From the IMG/VR virus record IMGVR_UViG_3300046009_005838: DNA of 64,000 bases; one strand, written 5' to 3'. The first letter of the stretch is position 1. The number at the start of each line of letters is the position of its first letter. Position numbers and translations under genes: made by a program. This document shows positions 1-63,483 of this stretch, piece after piece. The notes beneath the pieces are model-generated. The model made no database searches. It saw only the letters and a list, made by a program, of their open reading frames with translations, and had not been told where the DNA came from. The DNA is from an uncultured virus (IMG/VR IMGVR_UViG_3300046009_005838). Its lineage: Duplodnaviria > Heunggongvirae > Uroviricota > Caudoviricetes.

Positions 1-129
1 GGCAAAGGACCGCAGACTTACAGGACCTTTGCCGACACCAAAGCCGAAGCAAAATCAAAAGTTTGCGCCTTCATGCAGACCGAACCAAACTCAATTCACT
101 CAGTTAAAAAACTAAAAAACTAAACGACC

Positions 130-426
130 ATGAAAATATATCAGCTAGTTTCCTATGTTAACGCATGGAATAAAAGAAAAAAAGAATGGGAATCGCTTCG
201 ATCTGAAACCACTGTTTATGTTGGCAAAGTAGGACTTAAAACAGCAACCGAACATTTTGAGCGAGAAGTTCATAAATACAAAGAATTAACCACTCAAGGC
301 AACTGGAATAAGTACGGAGAAACGCGAGGTAAAGTAGAGCTTCACGAACCGCATGTTCACGAAAACGGAACGCTCGCATATTGGGGCGACAAAATTATCC
401 TTTCACATAATCCTGAAAACATTTAA
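130..426 (+). CDS. hypothetical early protein
   Basis: 98-aa ORF directly preceded by AAACGACC, in the + strand early cluster. Confidence 0.7.
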   Translation: MKIYQLVSYVNAWNKRKKEWESLRSETTVYVGKVGLKTATEHFEREVHKYKELTTQGNWNKYGETRGKVELHEPHVHENGTLAYWGDKIILSHNPENI

Positions 427-438
427 CAACTAAACACC

Positions 439-717
439 ATGCAAACGACCGAACTAAGAGTAACAGACACCGCAGGAGGACACCAATTTGCCATCGTTGA
501 TGATAGCACAGGACAAGACATTGCCCTCGTTTACAACAGAAACGAACAAAGCAAAGAGACCGCACAACTTTTGGCAGCAGCCCCCGAATTGTTGGAAGCA
601 TTACAAAAACTAATTGATGACATTGAATATTCAAAAGACGTTATACCAATGGGAGCAATAGGGAATCGACAAATCAAATCAGCTAAAGCAGCAATCCAAA
701 AAGCCACACAATCATGA
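439..717 (+). CDS. hypothetical early protein (AAAPELLEAL-type small phage protein)
   Basis: Contains 'AQLLAAAPELLEALQ', a motif common in small phage proteins. Confidence 0.75.
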   Translation: MQTTELRVTDTAGGHQFAIVDDSTGQDIALVYNRNEQSKETAQLLAAAPELLEALQKLIDDIEYSKDVIPMGAIGNRQIKSAKAAIQKATQS

Positions 718-893
718 AAAACAATTCCCTCACAATCATCAAAGCAATTGCAGTATTGCTAGTGATTATCTCATTCCTTTCCTCTTGCAAATCTTCTCAC
801 GGATGCGGAGGTATCTGCTCCAATCATGGAAAGAAACAAGGCAAGTACACATCAATAAAGAAGAACTCTAACTCTTACAAAAATAGATTTTAG
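714..893 (+). CDS. small putative lipoprotein (59 aa, not in ORF track)
   Basis: Read by hand: MKNNSLTIIKAIAVLLVIISFLSSCKSSHGCGG...; hydrophobic stretch plus LSSC lipobox; ATGA overlap with the upstream stop. Confidence 0.65.
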   Translation: MKNNSLTIIKAIAVLLVIISFLSSCKSSHGCGGICSNHGKKQGKYTSIKKNSNSYKNRF

Positions 894-895
894 CT

Positions 896-1039
896 ATGAA
901 AGCATTCATCCAATCCAAAATTCACAACCGCATAAATGCCAGGGCAGCAGCCAAGGCAAACCAATGCCAACTCTACACACATTCAGACGTGATGTTTTTA
1001 CGCCAAATAAAACCAATTATAGCAGCATTAAAAGCCTGA
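896..1039 (+). CDS. small hypothetical protein (47 aa, not in ORF track)
   Basis: MKAFIQSKIHNRINARAAAK...; fills the gap in a tightly packed operon. Confidence 0.5.
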   Translation: MKAFIQSKIHNRINARAAAKANQCQLYTHSDVMFLRQIKPIIAALKA

Positions 1040-1042
1040 TAT

Positions 1043-1171
1043 ATGCCACGCAAACGACCAACCCCAACGAGGAAACTAGAATTCCATTTATTTTACGAAC
1101 TGTCTAAGGTCAACAGGCAGATAAAGAGATTGACCGCTGAGAAAACAACAACTAAAGACCAAACCAAATGA
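1043..1171 (+). CDS. small basic hypothetical protein (42 aa, not in ORF track)
   Basis: MPRKRPTPTRKLEFHLFYELSK...; its stop overlaps the next ATG (ATGA). Confidence 0.55.
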   Translation: MPRKRPTPTRKLEFHLFYELSKVNRQIKRLTAEKTTTKDQTK

Positions 1172-1563
1172 CCGAACCAATTTACGTGATCGAAACGCAT
1201 ACGGGCAAACGATACCCATGCTTCACAGACCAAGAACTGAAAGACACCACACGCTGGTTAGACCGAAAGAACATTGATTTCTACAAACGCACCGCGAAGG
1301 AAACCAAGACAATGTTCAACGACCGCGACCAGGAACCTAACATTTCCAAATACTTGACAACCGATTTATTTGAATTGTCAGCCAAGACCGCAGCGAATGA
1401 ACTATTGACAGCCCAACAAACAGACGAATTAAGCCGTTTAATTAAGTTTTTAGCGATGATCTTACAGCAAGCAGAGGAAAGTATAGTTCTGAAAGATTGC
1501 GCTCGTTATATAGCCTCTATTCAATCCAAAAGTTTCAGACACAATTCAAATATGCTATCATGA
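1168..1563 (+). CDS. hypothetical protein
   Basis: 131-aa ORF, translationally coupled to its neighbours. Confidence 0.7.
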   Translation: MTEPIYVIETHTGKRYPCFTDQELKDTTRWLDRKNIDFYKRTAKETKTMFNDRDQEPNISKYLTTDLFELSAKTAANELLTAQQTDELSRLIKFLAMILQQAEESIVLKDCARYIASIQSKSFRHNSNMLS

Positions 1564-1717
1564 TCTCAGACCTAGTAATCTACAAAGGCAATTCAGGACT
1601 GATTAAATTCGGCAGCGTATGCAAAGTACATTCATGCAGCGTTGACCGCAGACTGATCGTAGTTTCGTACTGGAAAACATTTGCCACCTTACCGGCCATT
1701 CAATTCGAGAACGTCCC

Positions 1718-1924
1718 ATGAGAATAGCAATTGCAACGGGATACGGAACGGCAATGAAGTTTGTCACCTCCCACAAAGGACCATACCAAATGACCACCGA
1801 TATGCATAGCGCGGACACCTTTGACACAGAAGCCGAAGCAAATTCAGTTATTCAGAAATTACCATTACCAATCAAACAAAGACAACCCCGAACCGTAACA
1901 CTTTCAAAACAATTTAAGCCATGA
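1718..1924 (+). CDS. hypothetical protein
   Basis: 68-aa ORF with ATGA overlaps. Confidence 0.6.
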   Translation: MRIAIATGYGTAMKFVTSHKGPYQMTTDMHSADTFDTEAEANSVIQKLPLPIKQRQPRTVTLSKQFKP

Positions 1925-2154
1925 CACTAACACGCACCTACACACCGCTACCAATGTTCGCCATAGACGGACTGAGAATTGACCGCCACACCTTTATCAA
2001 CATACTCAAACTCTGCACACGAGCTGGCATTGAGCCAACGGATATAAGCGAAGGCGCGGCTGCATCCTGGAATATTTCCAACTTGCCATCCGAAGCTATT
2101 GAGCAAGCAAAGAGAATGTCAACTGAAAGATTTGCCGCGTATGAAGCCAAGTAA
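1921..2154 (+). CDS. hypothetical protein
   Basis: 77-aa ORF with ATGA overlap. Confidence 0.6.
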   Translation: MTLTRTYTPLPMFAIDGLRIDRHTFINILKLCTRAGIEPTDISEGAAASWNISNLPSEAIEQAKRMSTERFAAYEAK

Positions 2155-2233
2155 ATCCGAGAAGGCATTTGCCTACACATTACTTGCAATTGCACTGTCA
2201 TGGTTAGCCTTCTGCTTTATTTTCTAACACCTA

Positions 2234-2264
2234 TTGCACAATCAAAAAATCCAACTTACATTTG
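2234..2264 (+). promoter_or_regulatory. Bacteroidetes sigma-A-type promoter (-33 TTG / -7 TAnnTTTG)
   Basis: TTG at 2234-2236 and TACATTTG at 2257-2264, upstream of ATG 2288. Confidence 0.65.
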
Positions 2265-2287
2265 TAATCCAATTCAAAACGACCAAA

Positions 2288-2479
2288 ATGAAACGACTAC
2301 TTAATTACTTTTTTTCTAGCCGTCCAACGGCACACCAACTTTGGAAGCAAGATTGCGCCCAAGGAGTTAAAGCTATTCTCACTCAAGAAGGAGGAAAGCG
2401 AAGCGAGATACACTCACAACTTGTTGCCCTCAAGCAGTCATTGACCGGAACGACTGCACCAATTTCAAATGTTAAGTGA
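2288..2479 (+). CDS. hypothetical protein (start revised to ATG 2288)
   Basis: MKRLLNYFFSS...; preceded by a promoter and AAACGACCAA. Confidence 0.6.
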   Translation: MKRLLNYFFSSRPTAHQLWKQDCAQGVKAILTQEGGKRSEIHSQLVALKQSLTGTTAPISNVK

Positions 2480-2666
2480 GATGGACAGCGAACTCAAAAA
2501 ACTATTCGAGGAAGTATTCAAGAATGTTGACCTTGAAAACTTTTCAGCAGAACACAAGGACGGCAATATACATATCCGAACCAACGGACTGTATCTTGTA
2601 ATGCCAGAGGATGCCTACCATGAAATGATAAAGACTTCATTGAAATCTAAAACCACTGAGCTATGA
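2469..2666 (+). CDS. hypothetical protein
   Basis: 65-aa ORF in the operon. Confidence 0.55.
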   Translation: MLSEMDSELKKLFEEVFKNVDLENFSAEHKDGNIHIRTNGLYLVMPEDAYHEMIKTSLKSKTTEL

Positions 2667-2753
2667 AGATTTTATTTTTCTACATTCAAGTCTTCCTTGT
2701 CAGCTTGCTTCAAGTTACATTGATAACTATTTTCAAACCACTAAATAAATAGC

Positions 2754-2957
2754 ATGACCATAGGACAACTGATTAAACAGGAACTCAAGAATCAAAACAT
2801 GAGGCAGAGTTTCCTTGCCAACGCAACGGGCATATCGAAGAACACCATTTCATCTATCTGCTCGGACAAGCACCGACCTTACGATGATACCATTGATAAA
2901 ATCTGCAAGGTATTGAAGGTAAAACTTTCTTTTTATTTTGAACCGATTGAATCCTGA
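2754..2957 (+). CDS. XRE/Cro-like helix-turn-helix transcriptional regulator
   Basis: 'IGQLIKQELKNQNMRQSFLANATGISKNTISSICSDKHRP...TIDKICKVL' fits the HTH_3 pattern. Confidence 0.85.
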   Translation: MTIGQLIKQELKNQNMRQSFLANATGISKNTISSICSDKHRPYDDTIDKICKVLKVKLSFYFEPIES

Positions 2958-3517
2958 TGCCACCGAAAACACACAAGCAATACCAAGAAGGATCCTTCGA
3001 AGCTAACTTCCACGAGATAGCCGATCCGCTGCTTATTGCCCTCGATGACCGCATTACAAACTTGACTGATAGGTTCAACGTCCAAAAGAGAATCAACCAA
3101 GAGGCACAGGTTCGCATCAAAGCCCAGGACGCAACCATCCGAGCAATGCAACGGGAACTTGCCGACCTACAAAGGCTGCACAGCCCACAAGTAATTGCAA
3201 GGATACAGAACAAAAGCGTTAACAGCATTCGGGACCAAGTAATTGACCACCTGAAAGAGAATTTCGAGAACGCAGGGAGCATACCCAAGCACGTGCTTAT
3301 TTCTGGGGGAGGCTTCACGCTGACAAACCTTCGCAATTATATTGCTAACCGATTCAGCGCGGACTATTCAAGCCGAAAGATTGTCAGCACTCAGGCGATG
3401 ACAAAGATAGTTCACGAGGCAGGATTGAACTCAGAGATTGAAACGCATGATCTCCTGATGCCTGACACTACCACGCAGCGATTTAGATTTTACAGAATTA
3501 AACTTAAACAGAAGTAA
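2957..3517 (+). CDS. hypothetical protein (coiled-coil N-half)
   Basis: 186-aa ORF between the XRE gene and the recombinase. Confidence 0.7.
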   Translation: MPPKTHKQYQEGSFEANFHEIADPLLIALDDRITNLTDRFNVQKRINQEAQVRIKAQDATIRAMQRELADLQRLHSPQVIARIQNKSVNSIRDQVIDHLKENFENAGSIPKHVLISGGGFTLTNLRNYIANRFSADYSSRKIVSTQAMTKIVHEAGLNSEIETHDLLMPDTTTQRFRFYRIKLKQK

Positions 3518-3527
3518 CCAAACGACC

Positions 3528-4256
3528 ATGGAAGCAAAAGCATACGGCATAGCACGAGTAAGCACGGGCAAGCAAGTGAAGTTCGGAGCATCCCTCGAAA
3601 TGCAAAACACAACAGTTCACCGCATGGCAAATGCCAACTCAGAAGAGATTGCTCACATCTTTGTCGATGAAGGAGTAAGCGGAGGCGAATCTACAAAGCG
3701 AGTTGAGTACACCAAACTAAAAGAGTTAATCAAAGCTGGCGCAGTGAAGTCAATCTATTGCTACCACATGAGCCGGTACGGACGTAACTTTGAAGAGCTT
3801 CAAGTGTTTTGGAAACTTTGCGAGAAGAATAATGTTCGCATCTTCCACGACCAAGATCATTTTGATTACCGAGGAACGATGGGCAAGTTCATGCGAAACA
3901 TAATGGGCACCATGGCAGAGTTCATCAAAGACACCGCATCCGACACTACATCTTCCACCCTGCAGTCAATGAAGCGAAGCGGGAGAAAGTATTCAGTGAC
4001 ACCTTATGGCTTCCGAGTTGTCAACGTCCGCAAGGATGATGATGGTAACGTGGTTTACAAGGGAGATTTAGAACCTTGCCCAACAGAAAGCGTTACAGTA
4101 AACAGAATGATATTCAGCAAAGAAAGCGGAGCATCTTTATCTTCAATAGCTGCAGGACTAAATGCTCTCGGAATCAAACCTCGCTGGGGCAAGAAATGGT
4201 CGCACTCGAATGTAGCTAGCGTGATTAATACTTACAAATCTTTGACTGAGAAATGA
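3528..4256 (+). CDS. serine recombinase (resolvase catalytic domain plus recombinase DNA-binding domain)
   Basis: 'YGIARVSTGKQ' catalytic Ser motif, 'DEGVSG', 'SRYGRN', then 'PYGFR...SLSSIAAGLNALGIKPRWGKKWSHSNV'. Confidence 0.9.
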   Translation: MEAKAYGIARVSTGKQVKFGASLEMQNTTVHRMANANSEEIAHIFVDEGVSGGESTKRVEYTKLKELIKAGAVKSIYCYHMSRYGRNFEELQVFWKLCEKNNVRIFHDQDHFDYRGTMGKFMRNIMGTMAEFIKDTASDTTSSTLQSMKRSGRKYSVTPYGFRVVNVRKDDDGNVVYKGDLEPCPTESVTVNRMIFSKESGASLSSIAAGLNALGIKPRWGKKWSHSNVASVINTYKSLTEK

Positions 4257-5617
4257 GAACCTTGCTTTTGATCTTGCTTTCTCTGAATCTTTCTGCCCAA
4301 GAAAATAGATGGTGGCACGTGGGAGGAAACATGAGGCTTGACTTTGCCACAAATCCGCCAACAGTTACAGCGGGAGGCTGCGTGAATACGACCGAAGGCT
4401 GCGCTTCTATTTCCGATGCAGCAGGCAACTTCTTGTTCGCAACGGACGGAGTTACGGCTTACAGTTCGAATTGCTCAATTATGGCCAACGGAACATTGCT
4501 TTCGGGAGGTGCAAGCTCAACCCAGTCGGCAATCATTGTCAAGAATCCTGTGCTGCCAAACATTTACTACATCTTCACAGCTTCTCAGGATGCTAGCGCG
4601 CCAGGCATTGCTTACTCAGAAGTCAACATGACACTCAATGCAGGACTTGGAGCAGTAACGGGCAACAAAAACATATTGCTCACTCCTGGATTAATTATGA
4701 GCGAGAAGTTGACAACTGCCTTGCATTGCAACGGTGAAGATGTTTGGGTAATTTCCAAACGATGGCAGTCGAATAACTATATGGCTTGGCTAGTTACCGG
4801 ATTGGGAGTTAACACAGTTCCGATAGTTTCTTCTGCAGGCTTCACGCCAAATCTTCCAAGCGGAGTTTCTTACGGGCAACTGAAAGCATCACCTTCGGGA
4901 ACAAAATTGGCTGCAGCTTATTATGGTTTCGCAGGAGGCTATGGTAACACAGGAGAGATTTGCGACTTCAACCGAGCAACGGGGCAAGTAACGAATCCTA
5001 TTTCGCTTGGAACAATTACGGGATTGTATGGAATTGAATGGTCACCAAGCGGAGAGATATTGTACGCTGCCACCAACCAAGGACTGCTTTATCAATGGCA
5101 AGTTTGCGTTAGCAATATTCCTGCAACTAGAACTCTAATTGCCAACACAGGACCGTTCTTTGGATCATTGCAGACATCACCTTACGGTCAGATAATCCTT
5201 GCCAAAGGAACGGCAACACGACACGCTTGCATACGGAATCCAGAAGGCATAGGCGCTGCCTGTTTGTTTACAGATAATTACTATGGGTTAATTGTTGGAT
5301 CTCGGATGGGACTGCCGAATTTCCGCCCTGACTTTATCTTCCAAGATCCGCAAGCATTTCAATTCAATGATGTAAATTGTCTTGCAATTCAGTTCATTTC
5401 TCCCCCTGAAACTTGTACAAGCGAACAAGTTATTTCTTACCTTTGGGACTTCGAAGATGGAACGACCTCAACACTTGCCAACCCTATTCATGCCTTTCCT
5501 AATTCATCGCCTCGGAACGTCACGTTAACGATCAATTACCAGTGCCGAAGCATAACTTTGTCTGCCAATGTCAACCCGATTGGAGGATTGTTTGGAGGCT
5601 TAATATTTATGAATTAA
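4253..5617 (+). CDS. secreted Bacteroidetes-type surface protein (beta-propeller-like repeats plus PKD domain)
   Basis: Signal peptide ending LSA|Q; 'EGCASISDAAGNFLFATDG', 'YYIFT', 'GIEWSPSG'; PKD motif 'YLWDFEDGTTSTLANPIHAF'. Confidence 0.75.
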   Translation: MRTLLLILLSLNLSAQENRWWHVGGNMRLDFATNPPTVTAGGCVNTTEGCASISDAAGNFLFATDGVTAYSSNCSIMANGTLLSGGASSTQSAIIVKNPVLPNIYYIFTASQDASAPGIAYSEVNMTLNAGLGAVTGNKNILLTPGLIMSEKLTTALHCNGEDVWVISKRWQSNNYMAWLVTGLGVNTVPIVSSAGFTPNLPSGVSYGQLKASPSGTKLAAAYYGFAGGYGNTGEICDFNRATGQVTNPISLGTITGLYGIEWSPSGEILYAATNQGLLYQWQVCVSNIPATRTLIANTGPFFGSLQTSPYGQIILAKGTATRHACIRNPEGIGAACLFTDNYYGLIVGSRMGLPNFRPDFIFQDPQAFQFNDVNCLAIQFISPPETCTSEQVISYLWDFEDGTTSTLANPIHAFPNSSPRNVTLTINYQCRSITLSANVNPIGGLFGGLIFMN

Positions 5618-5655
5618 GAAAATAGCATAGGCTTACAACTGAAACACCAAAACGA

Positions 5656-5853
5656 ATGACACCAAAAGAAAAAGCTGAAAACCTATTAGATTTTTATAGG
5701 AACTATAGGTTCCACATACATGAGGTAGATTGCAGGATCATGGCATTAAATGCTGTGAAGCACATCCTCTCTGTGCTGCACGATTCGCAAAGTGGTGCTT
5801 ACGAATACTGGAAAGAGGTAGAAAAAGAACTTGAAGTAACTAACCAACTCTAA
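5656..5853 (+). CDS. hypothetical protein (MTPKEKA-type)
   Basis: 'MTPKEKA...YWKEVEKEL' resembles small ORFs of Bacteroidetes phages. Confidence 0.7.
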   Translation: MTPKEKAENLLDFYRNYRFHIHEVDCRIMALNAVKHILSVLHDSQSGAYEYWKEVEKELEVTNQL

Positions 5854-5865
5854 ACACAACGAACA

Positions 5866-6210
5866 ATGACCAATCAGAAACTATTTGAAGCCCTTGAACG
5901 GCTATGTGGATTTACCGTACTTCAATCTGATATGTTTGAGATTATTCGTGCGGTAGAAGCGGATAAGATGCCAATGACCGAAACGATTGAACAAGCAGCT
6001 GAAAGATTATATCCATTTGCTCTTGGTGGTATAGGTAATTCGGAGGATGATAGAAAAAATCATTTTATAAAAGGCGCTAAATGGCAACAAGAAAGAATGT
6101 ATAGTGAGGAAGAAGTGTTAGATATTTTAGATAAACTTTTAACATCAATGGTTAAAGGTGAAAAAACAGGCTTAATGGAACATTGGTTTAAACAATTCAA
6201 AAAGAAATAA
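5866..6210 (+). CDS. hypothetical protein
   Basis: 'ETIEQAAERLY...FIKGAKWQQERMYSEEEV...WFKQFKKK', a recurrent small-phage-protein pattern. Confidence 0.75.
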   Translation: MTNQKLFEALERLCGFTVLQSDMFEIIRAVEADKMPMTETIEQAAERLYPFALGGIGNSEDDRKNHFIKGAKWQQERMYSEEEVLDILDKLLTSMVKGEKTGLMEHWFKQFKKK

Positions 6211-6358
6211 TATGAAACAAATATTAAAAGCATACTTTGTAGAATGTATGTTATTTCAATCAGACAAGCCATTTAATTGGTTTCTTGGAGGAGTGCAATG
6301 GTGTGTTTTTATATGGTGTTTATTTTAATACAATAATTTAAAAAGAAATAATATGAAA
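6194..6358 (+). repeat. 24-bp near-perfect direct repeat at gene junctions
   Basis: AATT(C/T)AAAAAGAAATAATATGAAA at 6194-6217 and 6335-6358, flanking a 38-aa mini-ORF at 6212-6328. Confidence 0.75.
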
Positions 6359-6583
6359 AAGCAAACAGCCGTTGAGTGGTTAGCGGAACAAGTAAATTCT
6401 GATTGTCTAAACTCGGTTTTTATAAGACCTGACCTAATAAAACACGCCAAAGCAATGGAGAAGGAGCAGATAATTGATGCGTTTGGCGTTGGTTGTCAAG
6501 TTGAATCAACAAGACTAATTGGCTATCACAAAATGGCAGAACAATACTACAACGAAACATTCACCGAAACTAAAAACGATTGA
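6353..6583 (+). CDS. hypothetical protein (KQTAVEWL-type)
   Basis: 'MKKQTAVEWL...AKAMEKEQIIDA...AEQYYNETF'. Confidence 0.75.
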   Translation: MKKQTAVEWLAEQVNSDCLNSVFIRPDLIKHAKAMEKEQIIDAFGVGCQVESTRLIGYHKMAEQYYNETFTETKND

Positions 6584-6594
6584 GATGATTTTAA

Positions 6595-6632
6595 TAAAAA
6601 AGCCTCGGAGAAATTCGGGGCTTTATTTTTTT
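6595..6632 (+). terminator. intrinsic terminator of the early operon
   Basis: AAAGCCTCGGA-GAAA-TTCGGGGCTTT stem-loop followed by a T-run. Confidence 0.8.
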
Positions 6633-6637
6633 ATTCA

Positions 6638-6667
6638 TTGCATCTTTCTTTGACTTTACTATCTTTG
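6638..6667 (+). promoter_or_regulatory. Bacteroidetes-type promoter driving the putative sRNA
   Basis: TTG at 6638-6640 and TATCTTTG at 6660-6667. Confidence 0.7.
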
Positions 6668-6671
6668 CAGG

Positions 6672-6751
6672 CAGAAAGTCTTTCTTGGTCGTTTGGCTTT
6701 CATCTTCCAAGCCGGAACAATCTTTTATGGTTGTTTCGGTTTTGTTTTTTT
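6672..6751 (+). ncRNA. putative small regulatory RNA (~80 nt)
   Basis: Own promoter; hairpin 1 GAAAGTC/GGCTTTC with 14-nt loop TTTCTTGGTCGTTT; hairpin 2 AAGCCGGAACAATC/GGTTGTTTCGGTTT plus T-tract (terminator); no credible ORF. Confidence 0.6.
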
Positions 6752-6785
6752 ATAGGTATATTTACGCCCAAAATATGTTTAAAAG

Positions 6786-7055
6786 ATGAGCCAAAGAGTA
6801 GCAAGAGGTCGCGTGTTTCAAGTTGACAACATGGACCGTAAATTCGGTGAAAATTTAACATACAATTTTGTATTCTTCGAAGACACAAGGGATGACAAAG
6901 GAAGAACTTGCGAGGACGGAGAACAATTACCAACAGAATATCCGTTATTGTTTACAGACAATGAAATCCAAGTTGCAAGGCAACGTGCGCTGAGAAACAA
7001 AGAAGATTTGTTGGAGAAGGATTTTCTCACAGACTTAACTGACGATTTGTTCTAG
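6786..7055 (+). CDS. hypothetical protein
   Basis: 89-aa ORF preceded by the promoter-like TATATTTAC (6757-6765). Confidence 0.75.
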   Translation: MSQRVARGRVFQVDNMDRKFGENLTYNFVFFEDTRDDKGRTCEDGEQLPTEYPLLFTDNEIQVARQRALRNKEDLLEKDFLTDLTDDLF

Positions 7056-7079
7056 CTACTTACCACTATTGCCTTTTAT

Positions 7080-7310
7080 ATGAAGTCATTGGAGTTTATT
7101 TCGCGCATAACACTTGAAGACATAGAATTCTATTCAGTTAACGCATTAGTAGGAATAGGTTCCATATTCACTCCTTGGCTGCAAGACTTAAAGGAAGTTT
7201 TAGGCGTTGTCGTTCTTGTTTCAGTTGTCATATACAATTATTGGAAGATAAGAAATGAACGCAAGCGCCATAAAAAGGATTCTCACAATACTCCTGCTGA
7301 CGACAAGTAG
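7080..7310 (+). CDS. small membrane protein, possibly holin-like
   Basis: Hydrophobic segments ('VLGVVVLVSVVIYNYW') followed by a basic/charged tail. Confidence 0.5.
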   Translation: MKSLEFISRITLEDIEFYSVNALVGIGSIFTPWLQDLKEVLGVVVLVSVVIYNYWKIRNERKRHKKDSHNTPADDK

Positions 7311-8025
7311 GCTAGTAAGTCAGTGCGATTCCGTTTGGAATGAAATGCTTTGGGCGAATAGCCCGACAACCGCTTCACTTTTATTTGGAGGCTATTGCTA
7401 TTCAGGAAACATTCAAGACACAACACTTTGCTTTTACCTTTTGCCCGAAGGCAATGGTGGCTTTATAGGATATGGCTTCACCTCTCCAGAGGGTTACAAT
7501 GTAGAGCTTATCTACACTTCGCAATACGATTCTGAATGCATCTTCTTTGATGACGGTCTTGTGTTCCAAAACCAGAATGCATCCTTCGATACTGTCTTTG
7601 TTTGCTTCGAACTGAGAACTGCTTACATTGATAACTTCTGCCCGTACTTCACTCCGTACATTGGCTTGGCAATTACTATTGGAGAATTCTCCGCATCAAT
7701 ATCGGAAGGAAATCTTGTCGTTAACTTGCAAACGCTATCAGAAACCAACTCAGACAAGGTGTTTTTGCAATGGTCATCTGATGCCATTAATTTCTATGAT
7801 CTTGATTGGAAGAAAGCATCTGGTAATTCAAGCAAAGAACGGTGGTATAAATTCACCAACAAGCCTCCGATGTTTGGAATTGTTTACTTGAGAATAAAGG
7901 AACTCGATCTAAATGGAAACTTGAATTATTCTGAAACCATTCCTTTCTTCCTAGAAATGCCTAATTGGAACATCATTCCCAATAGGTTTGGCTACTATGA
8001 TATTATTGGCAGAAGAACCAAGTAG
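7255..8025 (+). CDS. secreted protein with the Ig-like module typical of T9SS cargo
   Basis: Signal peptide ending LVS|Q; 'LAITIGEFSAS...LQTLSETNSDKVFLQWSSDA...YLRIKELDLNGNLNYSET' resembles the LPVEL..F/W.T.SE.N..F...S.DG module; ends 'YYDIIGRRTK'. Confidence 0.65.
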   Translation: MNASAIKRILTILLLTTSRLVSQCDSVWNEMLWANSPTTASLLFGGYCYSGNIQDTTLCFYLLPEGNGGFIGYGFTSPEGYNVELIYTSQYDSECIFFDDGLVFQNQNASFDTVFVCFELRTAYIDNFCPYFTPYIGLAITIGEFSASISEGNLVVNLQTLSETNSDKVFLQWSSDAINFYDLDWKKASGNSSKERWYKFTNKPPMFGIVYLRIKELDLNGNLNYSETIPFFLEMPNWNIIPNRFGYYDIIGRRTK

Positions 8026-9989: not shown

Positions 9990-10481
9990 TTATGAAATTG
10001 ATTCGTCAACCTGCTTATCTCTGCTTCTTTGCTTTGCGGCCATCAAGGATTGACGGTCATTTAAGGATAAATCCTCTTGGTCATCGTGCCCAAGTTTATC
10101 AAACAACTCTTGAATGATTAATGGATATTTCCCTAAGTCAGAAAGCATCCCCTTGATTCGCTCAACAGACTTGTCATCTTTGTCTTTCAGCATCTTGAAC
10201 GCTGCAAGTTTCAATCCGTAGTCTGGATCATCCCTTCCTACAGCCAAGTCAAACTCTTCGTCATCTTCTTGAGATTCATCATTCCCTCCACCGCAGGCAA
10301 TAGAAACTGAGGCTTCGATAAACTTAATGTAGGTATCGTAGGTCTGAATAATATTCTTTGCTCTCCCGTTATGCAACTTTTTGAAGTCATCCCAAACGCG
10401 ATGTAAGATTTCATGGTCTTTGCAAACTTCTTCCGCTTGCTGCCATTCTTCCTTTGTTAATGTGCTTCCGTTGTAACTCAT
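9990..10481 (-). CDS. possible terminase small subunit
   Basis: 163-aa, probably helical ORF immediately upstream of terL; position only. Confidence 0.4.
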   Translation of the reverse strand: MSYNGSTLTKEEWQQAEEVCKDHEILHRVWDDFKKLHNGRAKNIIQTYDTYIKFIEASVSIACGGGNDESQEDDEEFDLAVGRDDPDYGLKLAAFKMLKDKDDKSVERIKGMLSDLGKYPLIIQELFDKLGHDDQEDLSLNDRQSLMAAKQRSRDKQVDESIS

Positions 10482-14406: not shown

Positions 14407-15020
14407 TAATCCCTACTTATGAATACAATCTCATCAGAATTAACAAAGTCCCTCGCTGTTGAAACCATGCTCTCAAGAATTATATCCGATTCATTAATAG
14501 ATTTTATCTTCCACTTTACATCTCCATACCTAATTTGAAGGGACGTTGTTGTATATCTTTTCGAAACAATGTCACCTATTTTATAGGAGAACACTCTAGA
14601 ATCTTCTTCTGATTCATACTTCCTATAATCTAAACCTGAAAGTATATTCTTTATGGCCGAAAACAAAGAGAAAGTAGGCGTTAAGTAGTCGTCAAATTTA
14701 TTAGAACAACCTTGAGCTGCCTGTATATTTAGGTTATTGAAATGTTCTTTCGGAGGCAACCTTTTTGATTCCCTTCTTTGAGGAAATTCAACATCGCATT
14801 CAAGTTGTAGGTAAAGATCAAATATGTCAACTGTAACTGCGTAATAGTAGTCAGATAATTCAACAATCTTCATTGCATCTGGAACACTAATTCCATGTTG
14901 CCTCCACAGTTGGTATGCCTTCTTAAATAAAACTGCCCTCTCAGGATTCTTTGTCATCTGCGACAATGCGCCCCCAATATTTTCTTGGTCTTGGTTCTGT
15001 ATGCTCTGGTCGTTTTCCAT
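14406..15020 (-). CDS. hypothetical protein
   Basis: 204-aa, AT-rich ORF in the operon. Confidence 0.65.
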   Translation of the reverse strand: MENDQSIQNQDQENIGGALSQMTKNPERAVLFKKAYQLWRQHGISVPDAMKIVELSDYYYAVTVDIFDLYLQLECDVEFPQRRESKRLPPKEHFNNLNIQAAQGCSNKFDDYLTPTFSLFSAIKNILSGLDYRKYESEEDSRVFSYKIGDIVSKRYTTTSLQIRYGDVKWKIKSINESDIILESMVSTARDFVNSDEIVFISRD

Positions 15021-15492: not shown

Positions 15493-17227
15493 ATTCTTTT
15501 ACTAAAACGTGACCTTCGGTAATCAATATCTCACCGGCACGAAGATCACCCTCAGTTTTGTCGTTTGTCGAAGTAACGAATATCAATAACCCATTTTTCT
15601 TGGCGAACTTGTCGTAGAGTTCATACACTTTGTTGTCCAACCCAGTGTCATCCACACAAAGTACGTTCAAAGGATATGCTCTCTTTTTCATCAGCGTACA
15701 TTGCAGCAATGCAGAGATCAAGACCTTTTGCGACTTGCTGTAACTTGTCAACGGTCTTAGGTCAGCATTGGGATTGCTAAAGTAAGTTGGATCGTATGCG
15801 CCAGTGTATTTGAAACCAAGTCTTTTGCCGTCCTCATCCGTCAACGAAATGATCAGACCTTTAACGCCAGTGTTAATGCCTTCGTAGAGTTTAATTCTTT
15901 CAGCACGTAAGTCCATCACTTCGTTATGAAGCGTTTCGTACTGCTGCTGTACATCGAATTTCTCCCAAAGGTCGTTTGAGGATTTGGCTTCTTCTAGTTC
16001 TTTGTCAAGGAAGTTCAACTTGTCTTCTGCTGCTTGGATTTCCTTGCTAGAATCTTCGATCGTTTCCGCTTGTACAGTTTCGATCTCCTTGTTTACTTTG
16101 GCAATTTCGACTCTTTTTTCGTTTACCAAAGAAACCATGTCGGAAAGTTCTTTCGGCAATGCATCAATGACTGCTGAATCTTTCGGGAGAGCATTGATAT
16201 CCAAGAGTGGAACGTAAGAGTCCTTTAGTTTCTCCCCTTCAACTGTAATGGCATCCAAAATGCTTTGAGAACAACTTAAAACCTCCGAATAAACTTTCGG
16301 ATATAGTTCAGAAAACTTCAATACTCTCAACGCAATTTCAAGGTTGCTGTGAGCATATTTTGCTTCGTCATAGCTATGAATTACCTGAGCAACTTCCTTC
16401 TCATACTCAACCCTGTGCACATCAAGAAACCGTTGAATATTATCCTTCTCAGCCTTTCCCGTTGTCATTGCAGAGTTAGCCTGGCTTTGAAGGCTGCTAA
16501 TTCTCAACGCCTTGTTTTGCTCAAACGAATCTACCTTGCCTTTGGCTGTGGCAATTTCGGTAATGATCGCTTCACGTTTCGCTTGAAAAGTTGAGATGTC
16601 AATAAAGTTCGGCTGAACCAACCCTTCTAGTTGAGTCTTGTAAGCACCGATCTTGACTTGCCTTTGGGAAACAACGTCACGTTCCTTTACCTTTTCATCA
16701 ATCTTCTTCTCAATATCCTTTGCTATATCAGCAACTTCGGGATACGTTGCAATGATGAAGTCAGTTACGGTCTTTTCGTTCTCTGACATGAACTTCGCAG
16801 AATCGTAAGTCAAGGTAGTAGAAAGCATCTCCCACATTCTGTTTGGAGTAATGCCTGTCAGTCCTTCAATCGGATCTTTGGTATTCTTCAACTTGCCATC
16901 TACTTCCGCTTTGAACTTGTAATCAACGCTGCCATCTTTCTTGGATACTGCTGAAATCCAAAACGACAATCCTTCGGGTTCTTTAGCGTCAGCAATCTTC
17001 ACTAGCACCTCGCAGGAATCCTCTCCTTCACGGAAGTACGAACCATCTCTTAATGCTGACTTGCCTTGTGTTGCCCACTTCATCACTTCAAGGAGCGATG
17101 TCTTGCCTGCACCAGCATTCCCTGAAATCACATTGGCACCGAAATGCTTTAGGATATCAATGTTAGTGGGCAAGATTGAACGGAATCCGTTGGGCAACTT
17201 GACTTCCGTTATGGTTAATGCTTTCAT
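15482..17227 (-). CDS. SMC/Rad50-like AAA ATPase with long coiled coil
   Basis: N-terminal Walker A 'GNAGAGKTS', central coiled coil, C-terminal 'YSKSQK' signature and 'LCVDD' Walker B. Confidence 0.8.
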   Translation of the reverse strand: MKALTITEVKLPNGFRSILPTNIDILKHFGANVISGNAGAGKTSLLEVMKWATQGKSALRDGSYFREGEDSCEVLVKIADAKEPEGLSFWISAVSKKDGSVDYKFKAEVDGKLKNTKDPIEGLTGITPNRMWEMLSTTLTYDSAKFMSENEKTVTDFIIATYPEVADIAKDIEKKIDEKVKERDVVSQRQVKIGAYKTQLEGLVQPNFIDISTFQAKREAIITEIATAKGKVDSFEQNKALRISSLQSQANSAMTTGKAEKDNIQRFLDVHRVEYEKEVAQVIHSYDEAKYAHSNLEIALRVLKFSELYPKVYSEVLSCSQSILDAITVEGEKLKDSYVPLLDINALPKDSAVIDALPKELSDMVSLVNEKRVEIAKVNKEIETVQAETIEDSSKEIQAAEDKLNFLDKELEEAKSSNDLWEKFDVQQQYETLHNEVMDLRAERIKLYEGINTGVKGLIISLTDEDGKRLGFKYTGAYDPTYFSNPNADLRPLTSYSKSQKVLISALLQCTLMKKRAYPLNVLCVDDTGLDNKVYELYDKFAKKNGLLIFVTSTNDKTEGDLRAGEILITEGHVLVKEFAE

Positions 17228-18619: not shown

Positions 18620-19453
18620 TTAAAGGTCGTTTGGATCGAGTTGAGTTGCTGCCTTTTCTATGGTGACAGTTCCCTCTACTCTTGCCTCTTTTTTAGGAGG
18701 CGTGTTTACCGGAATATCCTCAATGGTTTCCGAAATGTTTGTTAACTTATTGAAATCTCGATTGCCATTTTCTGTGTCGATCAGGCTCATTGCGTGGTCA
18801 AGTCTTTCTGACTTTGGCAAGAACTTGTAATGAGAGCGAACAACAGTCTTGATACACATTTCAGCGAACCATGCTTTCCATACAGTATCGGTTGTTGCCT
18901 TTCCTGCACGTTTCATGATCTCTTCCAAGTCAAGGATATGAGCATGTGTTCTTCCGTCTGGAAATTGAGCAACAGAATAGCAGTAAACAATCTTTGCATC
19001 AACAATTCTAGGCATAGCCCTCTTTGATCTTACAAATCCGCCAACTCCTTCTTGGTAGTTATCAATTTCTTTGTCGCAGTCGTAAACAGCACCACAAGAA
19101 ACTAACACTCCAGAGTCTTGAAACATAAGTTCAATCAAACCTTTGTAGTCAACAACCAAGGTGCATATATCTCCGCGAGGAACTAGGTGAGCAAGTTGTT
19201 TAATCGGATCCAATGTCAACCCACTCATAGCAACATTTGAAACAGCAGTGTAAATTGATTCAGGCTTGCAATCCATAATCTTTGGATTCTTCTGAACAGC
19301 CATCATTGCATAGCTTTTCTCCCGACTAAAAATCTTCTCAGCATCCTTGTTGTACATCTGAACAAATGCCTCATTTGCTCTCTGAATTTCAGTATTGAAT
19401 GTTTCTCTCTTAGCAAGCTGCAGTTGTTGAGAAACGCTTAAATTTTCGCTCAT
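18620..19453 (-). CDS. recT: RecT-family ssDNA annealing protein
   Basis: 'SIYTAVSNVAMSGLTLDP...AHLVP...DYKGLIEL...W..WFAEMCIKTVVR'. Confidence 0.85.
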   Translation of the reverse strand: MSENLSVSQQLQLAKRETFNTEIQRANEAFVQMYNKDAEKIFSREKSYAMMAVQKNPKIMDCKPESIYTAVSNVAMSGLTLDPIKQLAHLVPRGDICTLVVDYKGLIELMFQDSGVLVSCGAVYDCDKEIDNYQEGVGGFVRSKRAMPRIVDAKIVYCYSVAQFPDGRTHAHILDLEEIMKRAGKATTDTVWKAWFAEMCIKTVVRSHYKFLPKSERLDHAMSLIDTENGNRDFNKLTNISETIEDIPVNTPPKKEARVEGTVTIEKAATQLDPNDL

Positions 19454-20412: not shown

Positions 20413-20818
20413 CTACATCGTAAACCCTTGTTGACGGCTTTTGAGGCTCAGGTTTCTGAGAAGCACTTGGCGCTGACATTCCGACATCAACTATCGCATT
20501 AGAATTCAAAGATTTCTTTTTAAGAAGCCTTCTGTATTCATCAGCAGTCATGTTGGTTGTCTTGTAAACATCTTTCTTCCATCCTTCAATCGGATAGTCG
20601 GTCATCAAGATTGCTTCGCATCCACGTTTGTAGATTTCATTCTTGACATCGTTAAGACTTGGCTTGTATCCAATTTTAGTCTTTCTCCATTCCATCACTC
20701 GCATCTCAAAAATCTGCTTAATGACGTTAATGGTCTTGACTTGAATTCTTGCCGTGTCCTGAATGCCAATTTCTCTTTGCTCTATTCGTAGAGCATCTGT
20801 TGGTCGTTTCTTAGCCAT
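20387..20818 (-). CDS. hypothetical protein, first gene of the replication operon
   Basis: 143-aa ORF after an AT-rich intergenic region containing the promoter-like TATTATTG. Confidence 0.7.
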   Translation of the reverse strand: MAKKRPTDALRIEQREIGIQDTARIQVKTINVIKQIFEMRVMEWRKTKIGYKPSLNDVKNEIYKRGCEAILMTDYPIEGWKKDVYKTTNMTADEYRRLLKKKSLNSNAIVDVGMSAPSASQKPEPQKPSTRVYDVDEDDDGEY

Positions 20819-20911
20819 GTGTTATTTAATTGGACTGCAATAATACAATCAAAAATAATAGCCTCCAAATTGTGCTTTCACTTTTTGTAAATATTTACTA
20901 TAATAGACTAT

Positions 20912-53521: not shown

Positions 53522-54292
53522 AAGATACATTTCTCAAACTCACAGCATTACAGACAGAAACTCGAAGAAAATCTTCCTATAATCTCCAAGTCTTTCAAGG
53601 TAATAATTGGTGAAAATATTCGGGAAGCGCGGGAAACATTCTTCAAGACAACCGCTTGGGAGGCTTCGAAGCGAATGCAAATGTCCCAAATTGAATCCGT
53701 AACTGGCGTTTCTACGGTGACAATATCTGCCATCGAAAAGGGAGAAGGCAACTTTACATTGGATAGCATAATCCGAGTTTGTTCCTACTTCGATATCCCA
53801 ATAAATTATATGTGCGTTTCAGGTGGCTTTAAGAAATACCACGAGGCACAAACGGCTGTCGGAACGAAGCAGAGAAAGGAGGCAATGAAAAAAGTTGAAA
53901 AGATGCATGAGAACGCTCAGTGGAAGGTGACGTTTTTCTTTTGGGAAAATGGAATCCCAACCATTCAGCTTCCAAATGGAAAGAAAAAGACTTTTGAAAA
54001 CGGAACCACGCTTTACATCTCAGGAGCAAGCAATTTGAAACACTTTGCCGTTACGTTCTATAAAGACGAGCAAGGTCACGAAATGATCTACCACGACCTA
54101 ATAAATGATATTGATTTCTGGGCAAAGGGAATGAAAGAGCCACTTAAACTTTCGAACGAAGGAATTGAGTCGCCTAATTGCTCAAGCTGCTTGGTAATGT
54201 CTAGGAAAGAAAATATCGTAAGCAAGATTGCTGACGTTCGCCTCTATGTGCCTTCGCTAAAACAATACAGTCAAGGTGCAACGGTGCTCTAG
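53510..54292 (+). CDS. XRE-family HTH transcriptional regulator with C-terminal extension (start revised to ATG 53510)
   Basis: 'IGENIREARE...MSQIESVTGVSTVTISAIEKGEGNFTLDSIIRVCSYFDI'. Confidence 0.8.
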   Translation: MNYKKIHFSNSQHYRQKLEENLPIISKSFKVIIGENIREARETFFKTTAWEASKRMQMSQIESVTGVSTVTISAIEKGEGNFTLDSIIRVCSYFDIPINYMCVSGGFKKYHEAQTAVGTKQRKEAMKKVEKMHENAQWKVTFFFWENGIPTIQLPNGKKKTFENGTTLYISGASNLKHFAVTFYKDEQGHEMIYHDLINDIDFWAKGMKEPLKLSNEGIESPNCSSCLVMSRKENIVSKIADVRLYVPSLKQYSQGATVL

Positions 54293-54814
54293 TTCGTTAC
54301 CGTTAGCAATATAAACTACGCGGCAAACGTAAACATCTTCTTGAACCATTGTGCCAAGGTAAGTTCCATTCCACGGAGTCGGACTGTCGTGAACAAGTTC
54401 GCCCCAACGATTCCAAATCTCAACGGATTTAATGTAAACATTCTCGTACTTCGGAAACCAAGTTGGATTTTCCTTATCTTCGTTTGGCGTAAATGTATTC
54501 GGGAAATAGATTGTCCAATACGGGCAGTCTTCAACTAAAATAAATGCCTGTCCAAATGTTTCGCATCCGTTATTATCGGTGACTTTGTACTCGATTTGAA
54601 TTGCTCCCGTTTCTGAAATGATGAGCGATATCCTGTTATCATCCTCATAAACGCTGCCATCGAAGTCAGAGAACCAGTTAATAACATAGTTACCATTGCC
54701 CATATCCAAGGCAACATTGACAAGTAAACTATCATCGCAAAGTTGTTTATTTAATACAGCCTGACCGTTTGCTGCAAAAGTGAACAACAGAATAAGTAGG
54801 CTTGCTAGTTTCAT
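54257..54814 (-). CDS. T9SS type-B CTD (gliding motility-associated C-terminal domain) protein
   Basis: Signal peptide ending ANG|Q; short Ig-like part 'VTDNNGC'; 'IYFPNTFTPNEDKEN..W.P...IWNRWGELV...WNGTY.G..VQEDVYV' is the CHU_C/TIGR04131 signature. Confidence 0.85.
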   Translation of the reverse strand: MKLASLLILLFTFAANGQAVLNKQLCDDSLLVNVALDMGNGNYVINWFSDFDGSVYEDDNRISLIISETGAIQIEYKVTDNNGCETFGQAFILVEDCPYWTIYFPNTFTPNEDKENPTWFPKYENVYIKSVEIWNRWGELVHDSPTPWNGTYLGTMVQEDVYVCRVVYIANGNELEHRCTLTVLF

Positions 54815-63195: not shown

Positions 63196-63483
63196 TTATT
63201 GGGTTAAAATGGATAGTTTAAACTTCTCGGCAATCATAAATTCAAAGGACGCACCCTCGCTTCTCTCCCAGCCTTCGAGCATGTAAATGCAATCGCAATC
63301 CATAAGAGCAATGATACACTCTTTCATGTAAGACTCCCAGCTCTTGTCGTGGTCGTGTGGCAAGTTCATCGGGTTGACAACTTCCATCCCCGCTGATTTC
63401 AGTCGGCATTCTGCTTCTGAAAAAGCAGCCCTCGCTTGCTCAATCGGTAACCCTGTGATCTGGCCTGCAATGTAAGTTTTCAT
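63196..63483 (-). CDS. DUF4406-family protein (start at ATG 63483)
   Basis: 'KTYIAGQITGL...VVNP...WESYMKECI..LMDCDCIYMLEGWERSEGASFE'. Confidence 0.85.
   Translation of the reverse strand: MKTYIAGQITGLPIEQARAAFSEAECRLKSAGMEVVNPMNLPHDHDKSWESYMKECIIALMDCDCIYMLEGWERSEGASFEFMIAEKFKLSILTQ

Follow-up and report, generated by a model that had tools for sequence, protein, structure and literature searches.

A start-linked octamer and a candidate complementary small RNA in the DNA of an uncultured phage

In this work, we describe an octamer, AAACGACC, that recurs at translation starts within the 64,000-nt stretch of phage DNA analysed here (the window), along with a candidate small RNA (sRNA) whose loop contains its exact complement. 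Judged from sequence features, it is an evenly balanced proposition that at least seven phage genes carry AAACGACC as an mRNA tag, and we see about an even chance that a phage sRNA of ~80 nt pairs with this tag and thereby masks ribosome loading.

Abundance and orientation of the octamer

An exhaustive count over both strands of the 64,000 nt gave 10 copies of AAACGACC, all within the first 21 kb, where ~1.4 were expected; dinucleotide shuffles of the window contained 1.36 copies on average and 5 at most, and none of 100 shuffles reached 10. The original observation is confirmed: the five copies that it listed are all exact matches on the + strand, and the full count is twice as high. With the transcribed strand defined as + for positions 1-8025 and - beyond, nine of the ten copies are sense to transcription (five on the + arm, four on the - arm), and the orientation of the tag flips together with the direction of transcription at ~8025. 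Matches on the - strand lie at 6687, 15008, 15970, 18625, and 20802, the first of which is the single antisense copy (6687-6694), read as GGTCGTTT on the + strand. The claim that the octamer is always on the coding strand therefore holds for the range originally considered (122..3530) but not window-wide, and its supposed confinement to presumed early genes of the + strand does not survive: the four sense copies on the - arm, in replication and recombination genes, mean that the tag is not restricted to them.

On the transcribed strand, the nine copies compare with 0.97 expected under an order-3 Markov model (P 8.7e-7, or ~0.06 after multiplication by 65,536 words), which places AAACGACC first for over-representation among coding-strand 8-mers with at least five occurrences. 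Its one-mismatch variants (24 words pooled) yielded only 47 matches, and 2.81 Mb of other loci contained 75 copies on both strands, or 1.7 per 64 kb.

Placement at translation starts

Seven of the nine sense copies lie wholly inside the interval -20..+21 of a start codon (binomial P 4.9e-9), as evaluated with 74 ORF starts obtained from greedy ATG-ORF calls plus three manual edits, whose windows make up 3.9% of positions. The enrichment persists when the analysis is limited to the first 21.5 kb (P 6.3e-8) or when the 42-aa ORF at 1043 is left out (P 2.5e-6), and the composition of start regions predicts 0.12-0.15 copies (orders 1-2) or 0.81 (order 3). This positional analysis bears out the proposed concentration at starts, and the exhaustive count shows start and strand bias rather than the scatter through the genome that the original prediction had named as the opposing outcome. 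As had also been noted, the tag occurs both before the ATG and in early codons, with offsets from -11 to +9 (first tag base relative to the A of ATG) across the seven starts, so that every start-linked tag falls between -11 and +17 relative to the AUG, in mRNA that a 30S subunit has to cover.

The first + strand copy (122..129) is located at -8 from ATG 130 (a 98-aa ORF) and overlaps the stop TAA of the upstream frame (121-123), while the second (443..450) is at +4 from ATG 439 (a 92-aa ORF, phrog_1273), where it encodes Q-T-T. The third (1052..1059) is at +9 from ATG 1043, with codons K-R-P, in the 42-aa ORF whose stop overlaps ATG 1168; in a relative with 96-98% identity this copy is lost through 1056 G>A, indicating that strong constraint does not act on every copy. 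The fourth (2277..2284) lies at -11 from ATG 2288, ~8 nt past the transcription start that the -7 box TACATTTG (2257-2264) predicts, and is accompanied by a one-mismatch copy, AAACGACT, at 2291-2298 (+3 from the same ATG). The fifth (3520..3527), at -8 from ATG 3528 of the serine recombinase gene, is predicted to form the longest duplex with the loop region of the candidate sRNA (-24.3 kcal/mol), one that covers the AUG.

On the - strand, the copy at 15008..15015 is at +5 from ATG 15020, in a 204-aa ORF upstream of a SNF2-type helicase gene, and a homologue with 66% identity starts at the same place. The copy at 20802..20809 is at +9 from ATG 20818, in a 143-aa ORF that is the first gene after the -7 box TATTTTTG (20850-20857) and whose N-terminus, MAKKRPTDAL, is retained in four homologues. 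The two remaining sense copies lie away from starts: 15970..15977 is internal to an AAA_23 (SbcC-like) gene and is probably a coding passenger, the related locus L003 having the same S-N-D-L-W codons, and 18625..18632 is found in the final codons of RecT, with ATG 18584 (a 139-aa ORF) following 48 nt downstream.

Copies inside ORFs use all three reading frames, and the codons that they impose are uncommon in this phage (CGA, 13% of Arg; ACG and ACC, 17% and 16% of Thr), which argues that the signal resides in the nucleotides and not in the peptide. Approximately 8 of the 74 starts carry the tag, and none do among the other genes (43 kb). No comparable start-linked 8-mer was found in the related loci L003-L005, and hence such a tag is not a generic feature of genomes of this kind.

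A candidate sRNA unit containing the complement

The phage, which comes from a lake and is uncultured, very likely infects a host of the phylum Bacteroidota, as suggested by its TAnnTTTG boxes, a T9SS CHU_C domain, and a crAss muzzle-protein domain. The TAnnTTTG box occurs 12 times in 3,435 nt of sense intergenic DNA versus 21 times in ~60 kb of sense coding DNA, a roughly tenfold higher density from which we conclude that it behaves like the promoter box of this phage; in Bacteroidota, the -7 box spans -12 to -5 from the start site (PMC6847099, PMC9723704).

The antisense copy lies in a 200-nt ORF-poor gap of the + strand. Terminator T1 (6599..6634; an 11-bp stem followed by a T-run) closes the upstream operon and has a two-way appearance owing to an A-run ahead of its stem. 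It is followed by a promoter-like site (6638..6667) composed of TTG (6638-6640), a 19-nt spacer, and the -7 box TATCTTTG (6660-6667), which predicts a transcription start at ~6672. The candidate sRNA (6672..6752, ~80 nt) would comprise a 5' hairpin beginning ~2 nt after this start, a linker, and a terminator. The 5' hairpin has a 7-bp stem (6674-6680/6695-6701) and a 14-nt apical loop (6681-6694), the 3' end of which reads GGUCGUUU in RNA letters and includes the seed GGTCGTTT (6687..6694), the exact complement of the tag. The terminator hairpin T2 (6709-6742, -18.3 kcal/mol) precedes a T-run; T2 and T1 rank third and fourth in strength among five fully intergenic terminator-like hairpins (13 candidates in 64 kb). 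The predicted fold has a minimum free energy of -25.3 kcal/mol (z -5.63; equalled by none of 200 shuffles), and in it the mean unpaired probability is 0.93 for the loop, with seed values of at least 0.99 at seven of eight positions and 0.5 at one.

The TATCTTTG box is separated from the next ATG by 119 nt and an intervening terminator, compared with 22-32 nt at 5 of the 11 other boxes, and ORFs overlapping the unit have TTG starts only and read through the terminator hairpins. With a predicted promoter, a terminator, and no credible ORF, 6672-6752 has, in our estimation, even prospects of being a transcription unit of its own; alternatively, it may serve as a leader or attenuator for the gene at 6786-7055. 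Among public contigs, all from one metatranscriptome and as such showing neither RNA ends nor RNA absence, the 96-98% relative is collinear with this locus from 6601 onward (its letter differences are listed in part). No sRNA homologue was found in 221 loci, and the loop-region 20-mer had no exact match in viral_contigs. Rfam 15 covariance models gave no match in the whole window at the gathering score, the best in 6550-6800 at E values up to 10 scoring 21.8 bits against a cut-off of 47.

When the 8-mers of the unit were slid over the start windows, a single sharp peak of 3, 6, 7, and 3 matches appeared at 6685-6688, the remainder giving 0-2 matches, except where the U-tail finds its A-rich complement. 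A blind comparison of every intergenic 8-mer with the start windows put the word complementary to AAACGACC level at the top with one A-rich word of low complexity. The tag-loop link was noticed post hoc. Perfect 8-nt seed matches fall inside -20..+21 of seven starts, and predicted duplex energies of a 20-nt probe with the tagged starts range from -14.4 to -24.3 kcal/mol. Complementarity past the 8-mer was not significant against a start-matched null (22 contiguous pairs versus 14.9, P 0.08; all pairs, P 0.13; Watson-Crick pairs, P 0.14), and 8 bp makes a short seed for a Bacteroidota sRNA rich in A/U, that of GibS being much longer. Because the antisense copy occupies the loop of a promoter-to-terminator unit, an antisense RNA, not a protein, is the leading candidate binder. 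The earlier preference for an RNA-level signal over a Shine-Dalgarno (SD) substitute or DNA operator is upheld in part: strand specificity, placement on both sides of the ATG, the use of three frames, and the lack of a match to a Flavobacteriaceae 16S rRNA agree with it.

Alternative explanations

The tag could instead be an RNA operator or cleavage site for a protein, with the loop complement at 6687 being a coincidence or a decoy, which we consider unlikely. Strand bias and start-region placement would be equally expected for a protein-read site, the sharp 8-nt edges without significant extension of complementarity fit one, and most phage proteins lack a family assignment, leaving room for an RNA-binding protein; T4 RegA (a translational repressor of many early mRNAs) and RegB (a nuclease that cuts within initiation regions) provide a precedent for control at many initiation regions (PMC3014915). 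However, no RNA-binding or RNase Pfam family was detected in 68 scanned proteins (30 + 38; the 3520-aa ORF excluded), nor any RegA/RegB-like family with Pfam (30 + 38 proteins) or PHROGs (30 + 35), most ORFs having no match of any kind. A protein reader would also leave unexplained why the sole antisense copy sits in an open loop with a promoter box just before it and a strong terminator just after; by a rough estimate, a given 8-mer has a chance of ~0.1 of turning up anywhere in the intergenic DNA (3.4 kb, both strands counted), and a far smaller one of hitting those few loop positions. The sRNA-like loop, with its complement to the tag in matching strand orientation, is also left unaccounted for if the tag is a by-product of small-gene swaps at short shared start sequences with no regulatory role, an improbable reading in our view. 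In the 96-98% relative, the gene at 130-426 has been swapped right after tag and ATG (homology covers 1-136 and, after 156 different letters, resumes at 434), and two matching pieces (905-3533 and 3521-5681) have 13 letters in common and are separated in the contig by 448 others, so an extra segment in the relative appears to carry at each end one and the same 13-mer of tag, ATG, and next codon. Another neighbouring start pair shares a 27-nt repeat (6191-6217, 6332-6358), and the phage encodes RecT plus an exonuclease. Yet only the 8-mer is common to the copies, whereas decaying duplications would leave graded flank similarity, and four copies belong to conserved genes for replication and recombination on the other arm, where two fall within conserved N-terminal codons. 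Cassette shuffling is in any case compatible with the sRNA reading, not exclusive of it.

A translation enhancer for SD-less mRNAs, one that extends an A-rich, A(-3) Kozak-like context, pairs with rRNA, or contacts a ribosomal protein, seems very unlikely. Initiation in Bacteroidota relies on A residues ahead of the start codon, the one at -3 among them (PMC6847099), and two tag copies, giving ...ACCATG, do place A at -3; nevertheless, four of the seven start-linked copies lie past the AUG at varying offsets (+4, +5, +9, +9), the tag is present at only ~8 of 74 starts and at none in 43 kb of other genes, and related phages are devoid of any such word. Moreover, in a 1516-nt 16S sequence from the Flavobacteriaceae MAG L222, which may not be the rRNA of the host, no 8-nt stretch pairs at 7/8 or more positions with G-U allowed. 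We regard it as highly improbable that the tag works at the level of DNA, whether as an operator, as a promoter or start element for a phage polymerase, or as an oriented site of the Chi kind. Although an over-represented oriented 8-mer that flips with transcription at ~8025 is what such a signal could look like, the tag is non-palindromic and bound to start codons rather than dispersed along the DNA; a Chi-type spread is contradicted by the confinement of all 10 copies to the first 21 kb and by the seven of nine sense copies in start windows. Copies also follow the ATG or come immediately after upstream stops, places in which one would not expect a promoter, and the DFDxD polymerase motif is absent from every called ORF. 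In phi14:2, the early transcripts of the crAss-like virion polymerase showed no common upstream motif (bioRxiv 10.1101/2020.03.07.982082).

Proposed regulation and comparison with known systems

According to the sRNA reading, a host sigma-A type promoter would drive an ~80-nt RNA from ~6672-6752 on the + strand, the loop of which would pair with AAACGACC tags on phage mRNAs and block translation initiation, perhaps with faster mRNA decay in addition. The genes lowered together would include several small genes of the + arm, the serine recombinase gene, and the leading genes of the recombination/replication block, with late shut-off or lysogen silencing as the presumed timing. The enrichment of the tag, the loop complement, and the promoter- and terminator-like signals are observed features, from which we infer transcription of the unit, pairing, and repression; the scheme as a whole could fall either way with similar probability.

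The phage sRNAs known so far are mostly antisense RNAs with one target, or else they regulate genes of the host. The c4 RNA is processed out of a longer transcript. Riboregulation in SD-less Bacteroidota has, to our knowledge, hardly been explored. In PeSL cassettes of T4-type phages, promoter-stem-loop repeats of tens of bases flank shuffled early genes. The present tags resemble them in being short repeated sequences that mark the starts of small, variable genes and fall where genes are swapped, but differ from PeSL, which includes a promoter, in that the unit measures 8-13 bases within the translated start region.

In c4 of P1/P7, putative loop sequences pair around the ribosome-binding site and block translation (PMC12197685), and the predicted arrangement is likewise a phage-encoded small RNA with a loop directed at a start region. 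Whereas c4 acts on one mRNA (ant), one loop here would match nine sites on at least seven genes on both arms; the host, moreover, belongs to the SD-less Bacteroidota, and there is no sequence or Rfam similarity. GibS of Bacteroides thetaiotaomicron represses SD-less mRNAs by pairing across start codons and, like the predicted unit, belongs to an SD-less phylum and has a promoter of its own in intergenic DNA; it is chromosomal, with a long unstructured 5' seed of 30-50 nt and few targets (PMC7366714), whereas the candidate is a phage gene with a loop seed of 8-11 nt whose targets would be the phage's own genes sharing one tag. The logic of co-ordinated shut-off, in which one phage factor acts on many initiation regions, is that of T4 RegA/RegB (PMC3014915), but these are proteins with loose A/U-rich or GGAG sites, whereas in the present case an RNA is the candidate reader of a single exact 8-mer.

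If correct, the proposal would represent an RNA counterpart of the RegA/RegB shut-off, in which many of the phage's own genes are controlled via one short start tag, and would supply a rule by which sequence alone could reveal regulons of this kind in the genomes of uncultured phages. It is conceivable, if doubtful, that the tag doubles as an sRNA handle for the gene set and as microhomology for small-cassette swaps, in which case a cassette recombining at a tagged start would join the sRNA regulon automatically, and the tag would constitute a plug-in address to the regulon that mosaic phage genes could use in SD-less hosts.

Occurrence of the tag and its link to translation starts

The 8-letter word found at translation starts (the tag) matches exactly at the five plus-strand positions of the original prediction (122, 443, 1052, 2277, and 3520), and five further copies lie on the minus strand at 6687, 15008, 15970, 18625, and 20802. 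Such a word had been expected only a couple of times; shuffles give 1.36 occurrences, and the window has ten copies, a number reached in none of 100 shuffles. The statement that the tag always lies on the coding strand holds for nine copies (the sense copies) and fails for the antisense copy at 6687, and the proposed k-mer count and start-codon enrichment test, once run, upheld both strand bias and start linkage. All ten copies fall within the first 21 kb. Under an order-3 Markov model, 0.97 sense copies are expected against the nine present (P 8.7e-7; approximately 0.06 when corrected for 65,536 words), and the tag is the most extreme of the 8-mers seen at least five times when these are oriented to transcription. 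Its one-mismatch variants (n = 24) have a mean of two matches each, and the tag itself occurs 1.7 times per 64 kb in 2.81 Mb of other fetched DNA.

Open reading frames (ORFs) were called greedily from ATG starts, longest first, on the transcribed strand only, with three manual edits: 964-1107 gave way to two tandem ORFs, 896-1039 and 1043-1171, whose stop/start spacing fits, and 7080-7310 was added. Of the nine sense copies, seven are contained entirely in the interval from -20 to +21 around a start (130, 439, 1043, 2288, 3528, 15020, and 20818); such windows make up 3.9% of positions (P 4.9e-9; 6.3e-8 counting the first 21.5 kb only, and 2.5e-6 when the short ORF at 1043 is left out). The composition of start regions predicts 0.12-0.15 copies at orders 1-2 and 0.81 at order 3. 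Two of these starts are mirrored in relatives: the 143-aa protein starting at 20818 keeps its N-terminal sequence MAKKRPTDAL in four of them, down to 64% identity, and the 204-aa protein starting at 15020 begins at the same position in a 66% relative. The eighth sense copy is placed at the end of the RecT gene, 48 nt upstream of the following ATG. The ninth lies inside a gene, spanning codons S-N-D-L-W that recur in the distant relative L003 and are replaced by others in L004 and L005; it is probably a passenger, lying in a run of 15 identical nucleotides (L003 2668-2682; window 15967-15981, minus strand) within AAA_23 proteins that are only 45% identical. Copies inside ORFs use all three reading frames (Q-T-T, K-R-P twice, and E-N-D) and fairly rare codons, which argues for a constraint on the nucleotides. 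The tag is a real and statistically strong feature, and pure chance, against which stand the shuffle counts, the Markov excess, and the start-window enrichment, is a very unlikely explanation of the pattern.

A candidate small RNA carrying the complement of the tag

The tenth copy (6687-6694), read on the plus strand as GGTCGTTT, lies between the plus-strand genes 6353-6583 and 6786-7055. The hairpin search placed a terminator-like hairpin with a T-run (T1) at 6599-6634 in this gap, followed at 6638-6667 by a promoter-like site (TTG, a 19-nt spacer, and TATCTTTG), a 7-bp stem with a 14-nt loop that carries the anti-tag at its end, a 7-nt linker, and a 14-bp hairpin with a T-run (T2, 6709-6752), all on the plus strand. 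The consensus TAnnTTTG serves the primary sigma factor of Bacteroidota as its -7 element and is situated at -12 to -5 (PMC6847099, PMC9723704). With the box placed at that distance, transcription is predicted to start at about 6672, with the first stem following two bases later, giving a candidate RNA of about 80 nt (6672-6752). The window has 12 such boxes in 3,435 nt of sense intergenic DNA and 21 in sense coding DNA, an approximately tenfold higher intergenic density, and they provide a usable promoter map of the phage. The next ATG follows at 22-32 nt at five of the 12 intergenic boxes; from the box in the gap (6660-6667) it lies 119 nt on, behind a terminator, compared with 22-32 nt at five of the 11 others.

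The 81-nt stretch has a predicted fold of -25.3 kcal/mol (z -5.63) in which the anti-tag loop is open, and T2 and T1 rank third and fourth of the five fully intergenic hairpins with a T-run (13 such candidates were detected across the window). When every 8-mer of the unit was slid over the start windows, one sharp peak appeared at 6685-6688 (3, 6, 7, and 3 matches), with 0-2 matches elsewhere except for the A-rich complement of the U-tail. The link between loop and tag was noticed once the motif was already known; when all intergenic 8-mers were scanned blind, the anti-tag word came joint first. No Rfam family was matched, and the candidate RNA is, as judged from its sequence, outside every described RNA family. 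Contigs of metatranscriptome run X20, aligned to the window beside three DNA runs, cannot show absence and contained nothing usable over the unit: a 207-nt piece covers 6379-6585, and 6594-6631 and 6723-6763 were matched poorly (7 mismatches each). A small minus-strand ORF at 6591-6710, which would make the tenth copy start-linked, was rejected as a gene, having a TTG start and a Lys-rich product and reading through the T1 hairpin.

Related DNA

Relatives were sought by single-protein scans of viral_contigs (primase, recombinase) and by alignment-based scans of metagenome_contigs, genome_contigs, and viral_contigs. The nearest DNA that these scans yielded consists of two short contigs, L001 and L002 (68-74% primase identity), followed by four loci, L003-L006, at 39-48%; further relatives, at 65-77%, are represented by proteins alone (P0122-P0124, P0127). 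Within the 4.5 kb of L002 (74%), one sense tag copy lies 48 nt upstream of the helicase ATG, with an estimated 0.07 expected, which is weak evidence; L003-L005 contain no comparable start-linked word. A 20-mer of the loop region had no exact match in viral_contigs, and a homologue search with 6584-6790 against 221 loci (blastn-short and nhmmer) returned chance-level matches only.

A closer relative (96-98% identity), present in runs X12 and X10, was pieced together from public contigs. Homology continues through the tag and ATG at 122-136, beyond which the gene body is replaced. The pieces matching 905-3533 and 3521-5681 share 13 letters (the remainder of the tag, the ATG, and the next codon) and have 448 others between them, so that an extra segment in the relative seems to be bounded by the 13-mer. 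A G>A change at 1056 destroys the copy at 1052 (among the differences listed, 40 of 528). Similarity resumes exactly at 6601, which probably places the candidate RNA unit in a conserved block. The T2 3′ arm (6729-6736, plus strand) reads GGTTGTTT, the complement of AAACAACC, this relative's variant at the 1052 site, probably by coincidence.

Proposed regulon and alternative explanations

An antisense regulon governed by a small RNA is the best-supported explanation of the tag, and we give it an even chance of being correct; one RNA with nine complementary sites would be the simplest account of the ten copies. The candidate RNA would pair through its loop with the tags and, at no fewer than seven sites (at least seven), keep the 30S subunit off, either late in infection or as silencing in a lysogen. 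The longest predicted duplex is at the recombinase start, where pairing continues across the AUG (-24.3 to -26.4 kcal/mol). Boxes at 2257-2264 and 20850-20857 directly precede two tagged genes, so the candidate RNA could turn down an operon's first gene. Complementarity past the 8-mer did not exceed that of a start-matched null (P 0.08-0.14), and a 27-nt U-rich probe gave start-region duplex energies no better than those of random coding windows; this generic score is uninformative and fails to separate starts, since U-rich RNA can pair with A-rich mRNA anywhere.

The positions of the tag would suit an operator read by a protein in the style of RegA/RegB, but no candidate reader turned up among the proteins scanned, and the complement in the loop would then be a matter of chance. 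The two copies that give ...ACCATG would suit a translation enhancer, whereas four copies lie after the AUG and the one 16S rRNA checked, from Flavobacteriaceae, holds no complement. Tag orientation is consistent with a role at the DNA level, against which count its tie to start codons and the absence of the virion polymerase motif from the called ORFs; a virion RNA polymerase promoter was rejected, as no called ORF contains DFDxD. The swaps at tags in the 96-98% relative, at the 122-136 site and around the 13-mer-bounded segment, raise a second reading, compatible with the small-RNA regulon, in which the tag would double as the microhomology at which cassettes are exchanged.

For the proposed regulon, the nearest known systems in mechanism are c4 RNA of P1/P7 and start-masking small RNAs (GibS), and in logic, the RegA/RegB shut-off of T4. 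A narrow literature search found no published phage small RNA regulating multiple starts of its own phage through one short tag. In the crAss-like phage phi14:2, intergenic regions of the early genes are reported to give rise to abundant non-coding RNAs with no known function (bioRxiv 10.1101/2020.03.07.982082).

The phage, its host, and the small-gene block

On the plus-strand arm (1-8025), small ORFs are numerous; a Cro/CI-type HTH protein (2754-2957) is encoded there together with a serine recombinase (3528-4256). The minus-strand arm (8026-64000) encodes a primase-helicase (10481-12913), an SNF2-type helicase, an AAA_23 protein, an ERCC4 nuclease, an exonuclease, and RecT (18620-19453), and after these replication and recombination genes comes a long block almost without family matches; a DNA methyltransferase-like ORF (63480-63983; phrog_757, E 5.5e-45) lies at the right edge. 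Two minus-strand proteins together point to a crAss-related phage with a Bacteroidota host: one of 1441 aa (42164-46489) matches the Crassvirus muzzle protein family (E 5e-21), and the other, of 185 aa (54257-54814), has a CHU_C sorting domain for type IX secretion. Given these two matches, the TAnnTTTG density, and the occurrence of near-identical DNA in freshwater metagenomes (lake, river, and others), the window is assigned to a phage or phage-like element of freshwater Bacteroidota that is a distant relative of crAss-like phages. Searches of the phage collection with blastn and tblastn gave no similar record, and a search for tRNA and tmRNA found none. The 3520-aa ORF adjoining the muzzle-like gene (29328-39890, minus strand) has no PHROG match and lacks DFDxD, as does every other called ORF, and also DxDxD, and is thus not evidently a crAss-type virion RNA polymerase.

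The "Recombinase" domain match of the 242-aa recombinase ends at profile position 50 of 102. The ORF overlapping its end (4253-5617, plus strand), with a signal-peptide-like N-terminus and a PKD domain, was rejected as the missing C-terminal part and is predicted to be a separate secreted protein.

Several repeats mark the small-gene block. A 27-nt repeat with 93% identity, ATG included, occurs at 6191-6217 and 6332-6358 (starts ATG 6212 and ATG 6353), by its sequence another duplicated start region. Part of gene 1718-1924 (1773-1846) resembles both 34-57, in the frame ending at 123, and 1151-1173, at the start of gene 1168; these repeats, at 87-88% identity, suggest paralogues or recombined pieces among the small plus-arm genes. 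In two DNA runs the segment 6441-6484, within gene 6353-6583, is covered 6 to 18 times as deeply as the sequence around it, shows many loose ends and joints, and seems to be common to many other genomes in those samples.
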